A stretch of DNA of 22,695 bases from Candidatus Micrarchaeota archaeon. GTDB taxonomy: Archaea > Micrarchaeota > Micrarchaeia > Anstonellales > Anstonellaceae. The stretch is from NCBI GenBank assembly GCA_013331805.1, contig DUFS01000020.1, forward strand, positions 8,715-31,409, in the 5' to 3' direction. The notes beneath the pieces were generated by a model. The model made no database searches and was not told where the DNA came from. It worked only from the letters and a program-made list of their open reading frames with translations. Made by a program: the position numbers and the translations under genes. Below, piece by piece: positions 1-3,274 of this stretch (the first letter of the stretch is position 1; the number at the start of each line of letters is the position of its first letter).

Positions 1-29
1 ATGAAAGCTGCACCGGCACCCAACTGGCA

Positions 30-44
30 AAAAACTTTTAAATT
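30..44 (+). promoter_or_regulatory. BRE/TATA-like promoter (AAAAACTTTTAAATT) upstream of tnpB; contains candidate TAM TTTAA (37-41)
   Basis: A-rich run followed by TTTTAAA about 30 nt before the ATG at 73; resembles other TATA boxes in the window. Confidence 0.6.
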
Positions 45-1214
45 AACAAATATGAAAATTGGAAGTGAAAATATGAGGATGTATCGTTTTCGACTCTATC
101 CTTCCAAGGCACAGGAGAAGCAGATGAATACAAACTTCTGGCTTGCAAAGAATCTGTGGAACGATCTGCTTGAGCATAGTAAAACCATCTATCAGAACTT
201 TGATAAATTTCCAACTAAATCCACCATTGCAGCCATGACAAAGGATTCTGGGCTGTATTCTCAGGTTGCGCAAGAGATAGGCTCCAGAGTTGAGAATGGC
301 ATCTGGCGCTATGTCAAACTAAGAAAATCAGGGAACGGGAAAGCTGGCTTTCCCCGCTTCAAGTCCATTGACAGGATGAAGAGCCTGGACTATCCGCAGT
401 TTGGTTTCTCCATTGGCAAGAAACTCAAAGTCACTCCGTTTGGTGAAATCTCAATTGTCCAGCACAGGGAGATAAAAGGGAAAATAAAGACCCTCACTCT
501 CAAGAAGGAAGCTTCTGGGAAGTGGTTTGCCTGCTTCGCTGTTGAGAAAACTCCAACAACCAGAGCCTCCAACGGCAAGCCAACAGTTGGAATTGATTTT
601 GGTCTGAAGACACCTGCAACCCTTTCAGATGGCAATGTAATTAAGAATCCGCGGCACATGAAAAAGCATGCTGACCGCCTTGCCAGGCTGCAGCAGTTTC
701 TCTCAAGAAAGAAGAAAGACAGCAAAAACCGAAGAGATGCAAAAAGAGAAGTTGCCATTGTCTATGAGAAGATTGCCAACACGAGGGCTGACTTCCTGCA
801 TAAGGCAACCATTTCACTAGTCAATTCATATTCCCTTATAGCAATGGAGAAACTTGCAAGTCAGGAGATGTCTGAGCAGAACTTTGGCAAGTCGATAAAT
901 GATGCCGGTTGGAGGATGTTTGCAAACATGCTGCGCTACAAGGCTGAGAGTGCCGGTTGCCAGGTCGTGTTTGTAAATCCAGAGAATACGACAAAAATGT
1001 GCAGCAAGTGCGGCGGCCTGCAGGGCATGCCGCTGGAAGTCAGGGTATATGAATGCCCTTGTGGCAATGTGATGAACCGGGACCTAAATGCTGCGCACAA
1101 CATACTCACAAGAGCTACCCAAGGACATTGGGGAAGTAACGCTTCTGGAGATGTTCAACAAGGAACATCATTGAAGGAAGAAGCCCACGCCCTTTAGGGA
1201 TGGGAGCATGTCAC
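42..1214 (+). mobile_element. IS200/IS605-superfamily non-autonomous element (IS1341-like, tnpB only)
   Basis: tnpB CDS plus right-end hairpin CCCACGCCC-TTTA-GGGATGGG (1184-1204) and terminal TCAC (1211-1214). The left boundary is inferred from TTTAA at 37-41 and is less certain. No tnpA within these bounds. Confidence 0.75.
73..1197 (+). CDS. tnpB: RNA-guided endonuclease TnpB
   Basis: N-terminal YRFRLYPSKAQ, GFPRFKS, RuvC-I VGIDFG, RuvC-II IAMEKL, Zn finger CSKC...CPC, RuvC-III RDLNAAHNIL. Start moved from 1 to ATG 73, where the family N-terminus begins. Confidence 0.96.
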   Translation: MRMYRFRLYPSKAQEKQMNTNFWLAKNLWNDLLEHSKTIYQNFDKFPTKSTIAAMTKDSGLYSQVAQEIGSRVENGIWRYVKLRKSGNGKAGFPRFKSIDRMKSLDYPQFGFSIGKKLKVTPFGEISIVQHREIKGKIKTLTLKKEASGKWFACFAVEKTPTTRASNGKPTVGIDFGLKTPATLSDGNVIKNPRHMKKHADRLARLQQFLSRKKKDSKNRRDAKREVAIVYEKIANTRADFLHKATISLVNSYSLIAMEKLASQEMSEQNFGKSINDAGWRMFANMLRYKAESAGCQVVFVNPENTTKMCSKCGGLQGMPLEVRVYECPCGNVMNRDLNAAHNILTRATQGHWGSNASGDVQQGTSLKEEAHAL

Positions 1215-1234
1215 GAAGCTTTGTTGGGGAATTT
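1110..1234 (+). ncRNA. putative TnpB omega-RNA (reRNA): scaffold overlapping the tnpB 3' end plus guide from 1215
   Basis: Stems: CCCAA/TTGGG (1118-1122/1128-1132), GCTTCT/AGAAGC (1141-1146/1179-1184), GATGTTC/GAACATC (1150-1156/1163-1169), terminal hairpin 1184-1204, TCAC. Exact RNA ends unknown. Confidence 0.72.
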
Positions 1235-1239
1235 TATCT

Positions 1240-1653
1240 ATGGAAAAGTCCTGCGGCGCTGTTGTATACAGGCTTGAGGCTGGAAAGAGACTCTATCTTC
1301 TCCTGCACTATGAGGAGGGGCATTGGGACTTCCCCAAGGGGCACGTTGAGGAAAACGAGAGCGAGGAGGAGACTGTGAGCCGGGAAGTCGAGGAGGAGAC
1401 GGGAATAATCGGACTCCGGCTGAATATAGCTTTCAAGGAAAAAATATCCTACTCGTTCAAGCGGGGAAGCGACATGGTGCCGAAAGAGGTCGTATTTTTC
1501 GTGGGGGAAACGCAACAGAAGGAGGTGCGGCTCTCACTTGAGCACGTTGGGTTTGTCTGGCTGCCTTACGAGTCTGCGCGAAAAAAGCTCACCTATAAAA
1601 ATGCAAAGGAACTGCTGCAAAAGGCGGAAGAGAACCTATCGCATAAGGCTTGA
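1240..1653 (+). CDS. Nudix hydrolase, Ap4A hydrolase (bis(5'-nucleosyl)-tetraphosphatase)-like
   Basis: EKSCGAVVY N-terminus, HWDFPKGHVEENESEEETVSREVEEETG Nudix box, LSLEH motif. Confidence 0.92.
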   Translation: MEKSCGAVVYRLEAGKRLYLLLHYEEGHWDFPKGHVEENESEEETVSREVEEETGIIGLRLNIAFKEKISYSFKRGSDMVPKEVVFFVGETQQKEVRLSLEHVGFVWLPYESARKKLTYKNAKELLQKAEENLSHKA

Positions 1654-2343
1654 AATCAGCTTATGAAGCGCCCTTGAACTGAAATCCCTCACGACCAGCG
1701 CTGCTTTTCCCCTGAGCGCATTTTTTGGGACTGTGGTGGTGAGCGCAATGCAAGACATTCCAGCTCTTTTTGCCGCCTCCACGCCTGCAAGGGAGTCCTC
1801 GAAAATTATGCATTCGGAAGGCTTTGCCTTGAGTTTTTCTGCGGCAAGCAAAAAAATGTCCGGAGAGGGCTTTCCGTGTTTGACGTCCTCCAGGCCCACG
1901 AATGGCATGCGTGCAAGCCCGATTGAGCGCAATGAGGCAGCTATGTGCGGCTTATGGCCGCCCGAGGCCACGGCAATGTGCACCTTATGCCTCTTCAGAA
2001 GTGCATAAATCGAATGAAATCCCTTTATTGTCGGAAGCCCCGCCGACTCTACGTATTCCTGGTATAGCGCAGCTCTTTTTTTCACCCATTTTTTCACGTC
2101 TTCCTTGATGCCATTTCTCAAAAAGACGTCTTTCATTATGGCGTAGGATCCTATTCCGGTGTAATTCCTTTTCCAGAAGCTTGACTTAATGCGGATCCCA
2201 AAGCCTGAAAGTGCCTGGTTGAAGGTAAAAAGATGGGCTTTCTCGCTGTCCACCATCACGCCATCAAGGTCAAAGATGGCTGCCTTGAATCTTTTCAATG
2301 AAGTCAGTTGTACGGGCATGCTTGCAACCTTAGGATGCTGCAC
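1636..2343 (-). CDS. HAD-superfamily phosphatase (beta-phosphoglucomutase/CbbY-like)
   Basis: Motif I IFDLDGVMVDS, motif II VASG, GKPSPDIF, FEDSLAGVEAAKRAGM. Start could be ATG 2319. Confidence 0.92.
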   Translation of the reverse strand: MQHPKVASMPVQLTSLKRFKAAIFDLDGVMVDSEKAHLFTFNQALSGFGIRIKSSFWKRNYTGIGSYAIMKDVFLRNGIKEDVKKWVKKRAALYQEYVESAGLPTIKGFHSIYALLKRHKVHIAVASGGHKPHIAASLRSIGLARMPFVGLEDVKHGKPSPDIFLLAAEKLKAKPSECIIFEDSLAGVEAAKRAGMSCIALTTTVPKNALRGKAALVVRDFSSRALHKLISSLMR

Positions 2344-3274
2344 CGGCAGGGCAATCGACGGAGGAACGGGCGGTTTCCAAATTTCGCATCATCAGCGCTT
2401 CAAGCTGCAATCCTCGCTTGAGAATGTCCTCTTCCAGTGAGGCCAGCTTTTCCTTTTCGTTGGCCGTGGCCCTTGGCCCCAGTTCTTTCAGCTTTGCCCG
2501 TTCCTTTTTCACCTGCCCTGCCGATGAATGCAACGTTGCAGCCCTTGCAAGAATATGTATTGGCGCTGATGGCATGTCTGGCGAAACGCTGAACGACAGA
2601 AAGAACGAGAGCTCGGTTCCGGTCTGCTGGTCAATATCTCCTTGATCTTCATCCATCCCGTCTGAGGACGAGATCATGCTGCGCCGCAGAGCTGAGGACA
2701 GCATCTTTTCCACATACAGGTCGCGCAGCCTCCTATGCGGCATTTTGGACTGCAGCAGGAGCTGCTGCAGCAAGTAATCGGGCAAACGCCCGAATTCGGA
2801 TGCCGCTGCTTTTGCCACCATGCTTCCGATCTTTTTTTGCAGAGAGGATATTTCGTGCAGGCGGAAATCCGAATAGCAGCCGTCAATCTCGCCTGCCACT
2901 GAATTCGAAAGGTCTGAGCAGCACGAAACCACAGTTATGCGGATTTCGATTCCGTCAAGCGAAGAGGAAAGCTGCATGTTGCGCAGGTCAAGGTAGGCGC
3001 GCTTGCCGCTTGGAAGCCGGATGAATGGCATGCCTTCCTTCTCTTCCCCTTTCCTCTTAACGAAAAAATGGAACCACTCAGAATTGATTCCGTCAACCGA
3101 CACTATCTGCTCACCGAATTCTGTCGGCTTTGTCTTGATGTCCGCGGCCTTCTTGAGCGCGTCGATTGCCGGCTCGCCGTCCAGGAAAGGCACGAACTTC
3201 CTGGATATGACCCTGCCTGACCTGTCGCTGAGGGAGAAGACCGCCGTCCCTGCTTTTTTTGAAGCAACTTTCAC
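2330..3274 (-). CDS. hypothetical protein with N-terminal DUF4430/beta-grasp-like segment
   Basis: 314-aa ORF with GTG start, upstream GGTG and TTTATAA. DALKKAADIKTKPTEFGEQIVSVDGI...WFHFFV resembles the DUF4430 pattern (by eye). Confidence 0.65.
   Translation of the reverse strand: MKVASKKAGTAVFSLSDRSGRVISRKFVPFLDGEPAIDALKKAADIKTKPTEFGEQIVSVDGINSEWFHFFVKRKGEEKEGMPFIRLPSGKRAYLDLRNMQLSSSLDGIEIRITVVSCCSDLSNSVAGEIDGCYSDFRLHEISSLQKKIGSMVAKAAASEFGRLPDYLLQQLLLQSKMPHRRLRDLYVEKMLSSALRRSMISSSDGMDEDQGDIDQQTGTELSFFLSFSVSPDMPSAPIHILARAATLHSSAGQVKKERAKLKELGPRATANEKEKLASLEEDILKRGLQLEALMMRNLETARSSVDCPAGAAS

Follow-up and report, generated by a model that had tools for sequence, protein, structure and literature searches.

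A tnpB element between a Nudix hydrolase gene and its promoter

The DNA analyzed here, referred to as the window, is a stretch of 22,695 nucleotides from a Candidatus Micrarchaeota archaeon (assembly GCA_013331805.1, contig DUFS01000020.1) that opens within a transposable element carrying a tnpB gene and continues into a gene for a Nudix hydrolase. In our numbering the window corresponds to G000:C47:8715-31409, where G000 is the host genome (1.19 Mb, 52.9% GC) and L001 is the locus sequence that extends upstream of the window; the features described below lie on the plus strand unless stated otherwise. The element is an ordinary tnpB-only (IS1341-like) insertion sequence (IS) of the IS200/IS605 family, ~1.25 kb in length, and its in-window part spans positions 1-1214, as delimited by paralogue alignment, empty sites and a bridged left junction. 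The Nudix gene (1240-1653; Pfam NUDIX, E 1.5e-15) follows directly and is separated by the element from its own TFB recognition element and TATA box (BRE/TATA).

Window positions 1-1197 form a single open frame in which the true start of tnpB is ATG 73 (MRMYRFRLYP...), or possibly ATG 79, and the stop codon occupies 1195-1197, so that tnpB (73-1197) encodes a protein of 374 amino acids. This protein matches OrfB_IS605, Cas12f1-like_TNB and HTH_OrfB_IS605 above the Pfam cut-offs and aligns with the structures of ISDra2 TnpB (E 3e-38), including the acidic residues. The RuvC residues D175, E259 and D337 were invariant among eight aligned copies, and as far as its sequence tells, the TnpB of the Nudix-locus copy is apparently catalytically intact. 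No tnpA was found between the element ends when open reading frames (ORFs) and Pfam matches of the interior were inspected. A genome search returned three Y1_Tnp matches in G000, at C56:3022-3243, C28:24389-24514 and C42:1532-1690, all listed as transposase remnants; the C28 remnant adjoins a distant TnpB (29% identity), the C42 remnant is broken after the HUH motif, and the one on C56 runs into masked sequence. TnpB loci number seven in the host genome and 18 across six of the 23 genomes of the genus. The analysis did not extend to bacterial relatives (12 loci, 31-40% identity).

Ends of the element and its internal promoter

The right terminus is the TCAC at 1211-1214, where the sequence-only reading of this DNA had placed it. 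The copies on contigs C47, C65, C40 and C66 of the host genome finish with GGGAG(C/T)ATGTCAC or with GGAGGATCAC and diverge from the next base, the same CAC end followed by divergence was seen in 18 genus, 13 further archaeal and 52 metagenomic copies, and comparison with empty sites set the cut after 1214. A subterminal imperfect hairpin, CCCACGCCCTTTAGGGATGGG (1184-1204), predicted by DNA folding and conserved among copies, has its foot 10 nt from this cleavage site. It resembles the left-end hairpins of the C65 and L062 copies in their DNA folds, and a profile made from left ends also matches the right-end regions of other copies; the ends bear no terminal inverted repeats. An outward promoter in the right end was considered, the candidate being a TATA-like word (TTTAG/TTTAT) in the hairpin loop, and dropped: the word is present only in some copies and absent from the promoter-inserted copies G000:C66, G017:C66 and G021:C33, and in the Nudix-locus copy the loop lies 42 nt from the Nudix ATG.

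A putative omega-RNA scaffold (1081-1214) overlaps the 3' end of tnpB. RNAalifold applied to 13 copies (~134 nt) yielded 32 pairs, half of which (16) show compensatory double changes, and this predicted conserved structure fits an omega-RNA scaffold ending at TCAC; Rfam held no family match to window 1-1400 at E up to 1. The flank following CAC differs in every copy compared. The presumed guide, GAAGCTTTGTTGGGGAATTT (1215-1234), is positioned by the right end and by inference from IS605 TnpBs, with a length assumed from other TnpBs. Its sequence is orthologous to the interval that follows TTTAT in relatives, that is, the former TATA-to-start interval.

The window does not contain the left end. 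In L001 numbering the first base of the element is L001 1459 (G000:C47:8673), 41 nt ahead of window position 1, and TTTAT (L001 1454-1458, 42-46 nt before the window) directly precedes it. An error of 2 is possible in these upstream coordinates because of the letters NN at L001 1499-1500, just before the window; a metagenome contig (L134) and a public-run contig (X10 record 3) span the left junction and read through without these letters, which gives an element length of 1256 bp with the NN of L001 and 1254 bp as in L134. A similar NN stands at L002 1457-1458, where the metagenome contig L154 has ~150 more bases. The alignment with the C65 copy begins at query position 1, and the homology between the C47 and C65 copies reaches ~41 nt back beyond the start of the window, as far as TTTAT^TAAAGGTGCCGCGAG and TTTAT^CAAAAGTGCCGCGAG, respectively (^ marks the insertion point; longer reads TTTAT^TAAAGGTGCCGCGAGAAAAC and TTTAT^CAAAAGTGCCGCGAGAAAAC), beyond which the flanks are unrelated. 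Ten left ends of the same type (six TTTAT, four TTTAA), with unrelated sequence upstream, share one order: the pentamer, 6-10 variable bases, a G(A/C)GCGGGAAA box, a hairpin (CCCACAC-loop-GTGGG) and ATGARAGCGA. The left-side cleavage site falls ~18 nt before the left hairpin, which folds as DNA at -10.1 and -11 kcal/mol in C65 and L062. With the similar hairpin of the right end, this arrangement corresponds to that of IS200/IS605 elements.

Downstream of this left end the element carries what would be its own tnpB promoter, consisting of a CACCGGCA box (11-18), which most copies have in conserved form ahead of the internal TATA, and a TATA box, TTTTAAAT (36-43), located 31 nt before ATG 73. 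Because TTTTAAAT aligns with the TATA-like words CATATAAAG, CTATATAAG and ATTTATAAAG of copies with unrelated flanks, it belongs to the element. The module formed by the box and the TATA word (CAC(C/T)GGCA, ~15 nt, TTTAWA; window 11-43 in the element) also precedes several host genes in G000, on contigs C6, C10, C14, C23, C45 (DNA methyltransferase) and C74 (AbrB-like gene), among others. In eight relatives (L125-L133), the helicase gene promoters read CCAC(T/C)GGCAT.CTAC, near the extended box of the elements. The module could be a shared transcription-factor site or could represent promoters left by old elements. For the copy at G021:C33, the idea that its box and TATA are a captured host helicase promoter combined with a very short left end was rejected, as the same module with near-identical spacing is found in G021:C25 at an unrelated site.

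Empty sites place the insertion within core promoters

Orthologues of the Nudix gene were found at 14 loci (48-72% identity), all 14 of them without the element. Twelve, comprising all 12 loci of the same genus, show an uninterrupted promoter, ...CAAAAAAG-G/A-TTTAT^GAAGCTTTGC..., followed by 24 nt to the start codon; the junction reads AAAAAGGTTTAT^GAAGCTTTG (pattern AAAAAG-R-TTTAT^GAAGCTTTG), with the pentamer TTTAT in nine genomes and TTTTT or TTTTA in three. The corresponding flanks in the host genome are ...CACAAAAAAGATTTAT on the left and GAAGCTTTGTTGGGGAATTTTATCT-ATG on the right, and the left flank is orthologous to that of the relatives, including the divergent upstream gene. Judged from these alignments, the insertion is exact, without target duplication, and lies within the BRE/TATA of a leaderless Nudix gene. 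The element is absent from all 12 same-genus Nudix loci, indicating that the insertion is recent and not a conserved regulator.

On the right side, 25 nt (1215-1239) separate the element from ATG 1240, which opens the Pfam NUDIX ORF. No TATA-like word was found 19-37 nt before this ATG, and no run of five T lies between the tnpB stop codon and the Nudix ATG. The sequence-only reading had anticipated both the 25-nt interval and the lack of a TATA at promoter distance, and it had correctly proposed an insertion directly behind a host TATA without duplication. The boundary and the TATA box turned out to be others than it had chosen: it had expected an empty Nudix locus with a TTTTAA^ junction, and the 12 same-genus loci instead show TTTAT or, in three cases, TTTTT/TTTTA.

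Two other insertions could be paired exactly with empty sites, giving three pairs in total: TTTAT^GAAGC (Nudix), TTTAA^CTTAAC (G017:C88) and TTTAT^AAAC (G000:C65). All three sites fall within conserved TATA boxes. At G017:C88 the element stands between GGATTTTAA and CTTAACGCGAGC, the relatives read GCTTTTAA^CTTAACGCGAGC (TTTAA^CTTAACGCGAGC) with an orthologous left flank, and the empty site is 22 nt before a conserved gene for 170 amino acids. At G000:C65 the element stands between CATCTTTAT and AAAC, G018 reads CATCTTTAT^AAACCC with an orthologous left flank, and the TATA of this site (CTTTATAAAC-like) is conserved in seven relatives before a glycosyltransferase gene. For the insertions at a PIN gene (GCTTTAA^AACCTT) and a helicase gene (AAGTAAATAA^ACCCTGCGCC), the right junction alone matches relatives. 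At the helicase locus, comparison of G021:C33 (L040) with G022 (L125) showed an exact right junction and ~95 nt of host sequence missing on the left side, which suggests an adjacent deletion or rearrangement.

TAM usage and distance to start codons

All 10 left ends of the element's type are preceded by TTTAT or TTTAA. Among 22 independent metagenomic left ends, retrieved with a left-end box profile and with boundaries placed by eye 4-10 nt before the box, 13 carry one of these two pentamers, five carry CTTAT, ATTAT or GTTAA, and four carry TTTTA, CTTAG, TTTAG or TTTAC. From these sequences, the TTTAT pentamer behaves as a transposon-associated motif (TAM), and the deduced TAM, TTTAT/TTTAA, would equal the core of the archaeal TATA box. 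Across G000, the first ATG of ORFs with 100 or more amino acids shows a sharp peak 22-26 nt past the end of TTTAW, and 24 nt is the commonest spacing. This is the geometry of leaderless promoters, in agreement with the promoter spacing that had been read from the window alone.

As a null expectation, built from G000 only and with crude ORF calls, 123 of 3290 TTTAW sites (3.7%) lie 19-26 nt before a co-oriented gene start, a proportion that rises to 9.9% for the 1244 sites not fully inside genes. Within the genus, six of 12 insertions lie at this distance from a verified co-oriented start codon (P = 5e-4 against the non-genic null and 2e-6 against all TTTAW sites): Nudix and RpiA (25 nt each), the 170-aa gene (22 nt), PIN and helicase (23 nt each) and a 487-aa gene (19 nt). 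The other insertions lie 32 nt from Pus10 or at 65-158 nt. This count comprises insertions with defined right ends; not in it are G014:C28, which is located at a contig end, G021:C9, for which no right end was found, and four copies beside tRNA genes that share their flanks. Among 13 further archaeal copies, one precedes a topoisomerase VI B gene by 22 nt and four lie at 28-37 nt, before genes for leucyl-tRNA synthetase (LeuRS, 28 nt), a TPR-AAA protein, a permease and an unnamed 609-aa ORF. Added to the genus set, these copies bring the number at 19-26 nt to seven of 25 insertions (P = 0.009). Putative ORFs open close behind the right end in L049 (1 nt, 257 aa) and L059 (25 nt, GTG, 288 aa); Pfam matched neither, and they were not counted as genes.

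For an independent metagenomic set, 80 loci were fetched, of which 52 had a right-end profile match reaching the model end (28 left out); de-duplication against the earlier sets yielded 42 new insertion groups, of which 29 had a flank of 250 nt or more and were counted (13 shorter ones left out). Only one of these 29 insertions lies at 19-26 nt and at most five at 19-37 nt, counted to downstream ORFs that were not family-checked, which is no enrichment over expectation. Pooling of all sets puts eight of 54 insertions at 19-26 nt, for which P is 0.16 under the non-genic null and 9e-4 when all TTTAW sites serve as reference. The promoter enrichment is thus real in the genus and not family-wide, and since the metagenomic set shows no enrichment, family-wide promoter parasitism is not supported.

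Other copies and neighboring genes

Four genomes share a copy of a more distant TnpB subfamily (56-58% identity) at a single position with common flanks: G021:C45 (L043), G017:C138 (L041), G000:C50 (L030) and G019:C2 (L035). These copies adjoin an apparent tRNA gene with its own TATA, and the shared insertion appears to be old and vertically inherited. Two different elements, at G000:C16 (L031) and in L051, whose TnpBs are 54% and 60% identical to that of the Nudix-locus copy, lie 65-68 nt upstream of beta-CASP ribonuclease genes at different sites of two genomes. In the window, the Nudix gene (end 1653) and a HAD hydrolase gene on the minus strand (end 1636) overlap tail to tail by 18 nt.

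Interpretation and rival explanations

Taken together, the evidence is best explained by a tnpB-only IS200/IS605 element inserted 3' of TTTAT in the BRE/TATA of the Nudix gene, with its landings in promoters being a by-product, a joint reading that we hold with a probability of about 0.85. Insertions often fall between TATA and ATG because the TAM equals the TATA core and TTTAW is concentrated 22-26 nt before gene starts in a genome of 53% GC; landing there is best read as a by-product of TAM and local promoter architecture and not as a family-wide strategy. Several results weigh against this reading or narrow it. The enrichment null comes from a single genome with crude gene calls, and the metagenomic and pooled sets show no excess over the non-genic null. 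Two of the five right-junction comparisons (G017:C66 and G021:C33) have no matching left flank. The left hairpin of the Nudix-locus copy (L001 1478-1497), whose 5' arm is altered relative to the C65 copy, is degenerate (-1 kcal/mol, z +1.4), and the second zinc knuckle of its TnpB is CP-CG (ECP-CG at window 1059-1064), as in the C40 copy (L028), versus CPxCG in six other copies, one residue fewer; from its sequence, this copy may be decaying, immobile or impaired. Two of the three Y1 TnpA matches look fragmentary and the third enters masked sequence, so that its integrity cannot be judged. Logan contigs of four public DNA runs over L001:900-3400 contained no empty allele or joint, although these contigs are fragmentary and of low depth, so that absence is not shown. 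Finally, a search for RNA runs covering window 1-2400 returned none with the locus, and promoter use, read-through into the Nudix gene, the ends of the omega-RNA and nuclease activity are all points that we infer.

The sequence-only reading had interpreted the TTTAA at 37-41, which is present within AAAAACTTTTAA, as the Nudix TATA box, serving both as TAM and as sole tnpB promoter, with the left end between 41 and 42. The appeal of this version lies in the sequence obtained by joining 41 to 1215, a BRE/TATA followed by 25 nt and an ATG, the spacing of which matches the genome-wide peak at 22-26 nt. It has virtually no chance of being correct, as paralogue homology continues upstream of window position 1 to the TTTAT that precedes both the C47 and the C65 copy, so that the left boundary lies ~41 nt upstream of the window (an outcome that the sequence-only reading had itself named as refuting it), copies in unrelated surroundings also have the TATA at 36-43 together with its preceding box, and the empty sites of 12 genomes put the host TATA at the TTTAT 42-46 nt before the window, where the left flank is orthologous. 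The TTTAA at 37-41 is part of the conserved tnpB promoter of the element, and the join is a coincidence that arises because this internal promoter resembles a host promoter. Nor would the gain of expression at each insertion that was proposed there be required, since every copy has its own conserved box and TATA. A more serious rival, though one that we consider unlikely, is dedicated promoter parasitism, in which the family would have evolved to target archaeal core promoters through context beyond the pentamer, use the retained host BRE/TATA for its own expression and pass transcription to the displaced gene, the A-rich first bases of the left end rebuilding the host TATA into TTTATTAAA-like words. 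The genus data agree with it, in that half of the insertions lie at 19-26 nt versus 9.9% expected and all three exact empty sites are in TATA boxes, and left ends start with YAAA or AAA, so that a TATA-like word persists at the junction. Insertions are also tolerated before presumably indispensable genes (RpiA at 25 nt, topoisomerase VI B at 22 nt, LeuRS at 28 nt and helicase at 23 nt), from which it follows that some transcription must come through or out of the element. The preference is missing from the 29 metagenomic insertions, however, every copy has an internal promoter, several insertions lie 50-150 nt from any gene or have no co-oriented gene, and a sequence reading of the copies revealed no consistent outward promoter in right ends. 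The core-promoter parasitism put forward in the sequence-only reading thus holds as a pattern in the genus and is not reproduced in the metagenomic set.

Two further explanations concern the nature of the element itself. TnpB occurs in IS607 as well as in IS605 elements and no intact TnpA adjoins the Nudix-locus copy, which would be compatible with an IS607-type element moved by a serine recombinase and not by a Y1 transposase. We regard this as very improbable given the similar subterminal hairpins at both ends with cleavage sites ~18 nt (left) and 10 nt (right) outward of them, the conserved pentamer 5' of the left end without target duplication, and the presence of Y1_Tnp matches in G000 (serine recombinases were not searched for). 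Hardly more credible is a domesticated, promoter-bound TnpB that acts like a TldR as RNA-guided regulator of the Nudix gene and is no longer a transposon. The guide-adjacent sequence is indeed core-promoter DNA, and the decayed left hairpin and altered zinc knuckle of this copy would suit such a role; against it stand an intact RuvC D/E/D triad, many paralogues at unrelated loci with intact ends, and the absence of the insertion from all 12 same-genus Nudix loci.

Proposed mechanism and significance

Under the preferred reading of a tnpB-only IS200/IS605 insertion, a Y1 TnpA acting in trans would have moved the element as single-stranded DNA, and TTTAT/TTTAA would serve both as transposase target and as TAM of TnpB. 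The omega-RNA guide would consist of the 16-20 nt after 1214, corresponding to the former TATA-to-start interval; set by the right end, it would match the uninterrupted promoter, where the guide target adjoining the TAM would be GAAGCTTTGTTGGGGA. TnpB would then cut the unoccupied Nudix promoter (TTTAT followed by GAAGCTTTG...), favoring retention of the element. The element would be expressed from its own promoter, the CACCGGCA box plus TTTTAAAT, and the Nudix gene is presumably transcribed now by read-through from the element. Trans mobilization, the guide and cleavage are modeled on what the consulted parts of published IS605 work describe (PMC8612924; bioRxiv 10.1101/2023.03.14.532601; PMC10640517).

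The element itself is a further example of a known IS type, and the notable part is the documented coincidence of a TnpB TAM (TTTAT/TTTAA) with the core of the archaeal TATA box, together with three clean empty-site pairs in which a transposon sits exactly between TATA and leaderless start codon. These loci offer a test bed for gene expression after displacement of a core promoter by 1.25 kb, for possible competition of TATA-binding protein and transcription factor B (TBP/TFB) with TnpA or TnpB for one motif, and for whether promoter-directed guides pre-adapt TnpB to regulatory roles. The enrichment was not reproduced outside the genus, which implies that the effect depends on genome composition and promoter architecture and limits general claims. 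As a speculation that is more probably wrong than right by a wide margin, a TAM identical with the TATA core might make promoter-inserting elements of the IS605/TnpB elements in archaea that have leaderless genes. Such elements would separate the TATA from the start codon, keep a TATA-like word at the left junction and carry transcription to the displaced gene, so that even indispensable genes such as those for LeuRS, topoisomerase VI B and RpiA tolerate them. If this were true, every omega-RNA guide would by construction be complementary to the TATA-to-start interval of a core promoter, providing a ready-made path to RNA-guided promoter repression in archaea.

Comparison with known systems

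A full-text literature search found no paper tying a TnpB TAM to the archaeal TATA box, and the link is not stated in the consulted portions of PMC4615843, PMC12558985 and PMC12817955. The closest precedent in TAM is Sulfolobus islandicus, for which the consulted text of PMC10640517 gives TTTAT as the predicted TAM of solo tnpB elements and TTTAA where tnpA accompanies tnpB; TTTAT is thus already on record as a TAM of solo tnpB in archaea. According to the same text, the S. islandicus elements, including SisTnpB1, resemble the Nudix-locus element in being archaeal, in a predicted TAM that directly borders the left end on its 5' side, and in a right end that is conserved to its 3' tip and followed by a variable guide. 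They belong to Sulfolobales, whereas the Nudix-locus element belongs to a DPANN micrarchaeote, and the words TATA and promoter are absent from the main text of that article as consulted, whereas the empty sites described here show the TAM to be the TATA core of leaderless genes.

By sequence, the best natural structural relative of the Nudix-locus TnpB is ISDra2 TnpB (PDB 8bf8, 8h1j and 8exa), with the same domain order and aligned RuvC acidic residues. In both elements the omega-RNA overlaps the 3' end of tnpB and finishes at the right end, an arrangement that is predicted for the Nudix-locus element. Unlike the latter, ISDra2 carries tnpA; its TAM is TTGAT, compared with TTTAT/TTTAA here, and the second zinc knuckle is CPxCG instead of the CP-CG of the Nudix-locus TnpB. 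The peel-and-paste element IS608 (ISHp608) likewise inserts 3' of a short motif without duplication and has similar imperfect hairpins near both ends. Its target is TTAC, and the distances that correspond to the ~18 nt (left) and 10 nt (right) between hairpin and cleavage site given above are 19 and 10 nt in IS608. No adjacent tnpA accompanies the Nudix-locus element, in contrast to IS608.

TldRs are TnpB-derived RNA-guided transcription factors whose guides address promoter DNA, as described in the consulted part of bioRxiv 10.1101/2023.11.30.569447. They are nuclease-dead and domesticated, whereas the TnpB at the Nudix locus keeps its D/E/D residues and belongs to a multi-copy mobile family.

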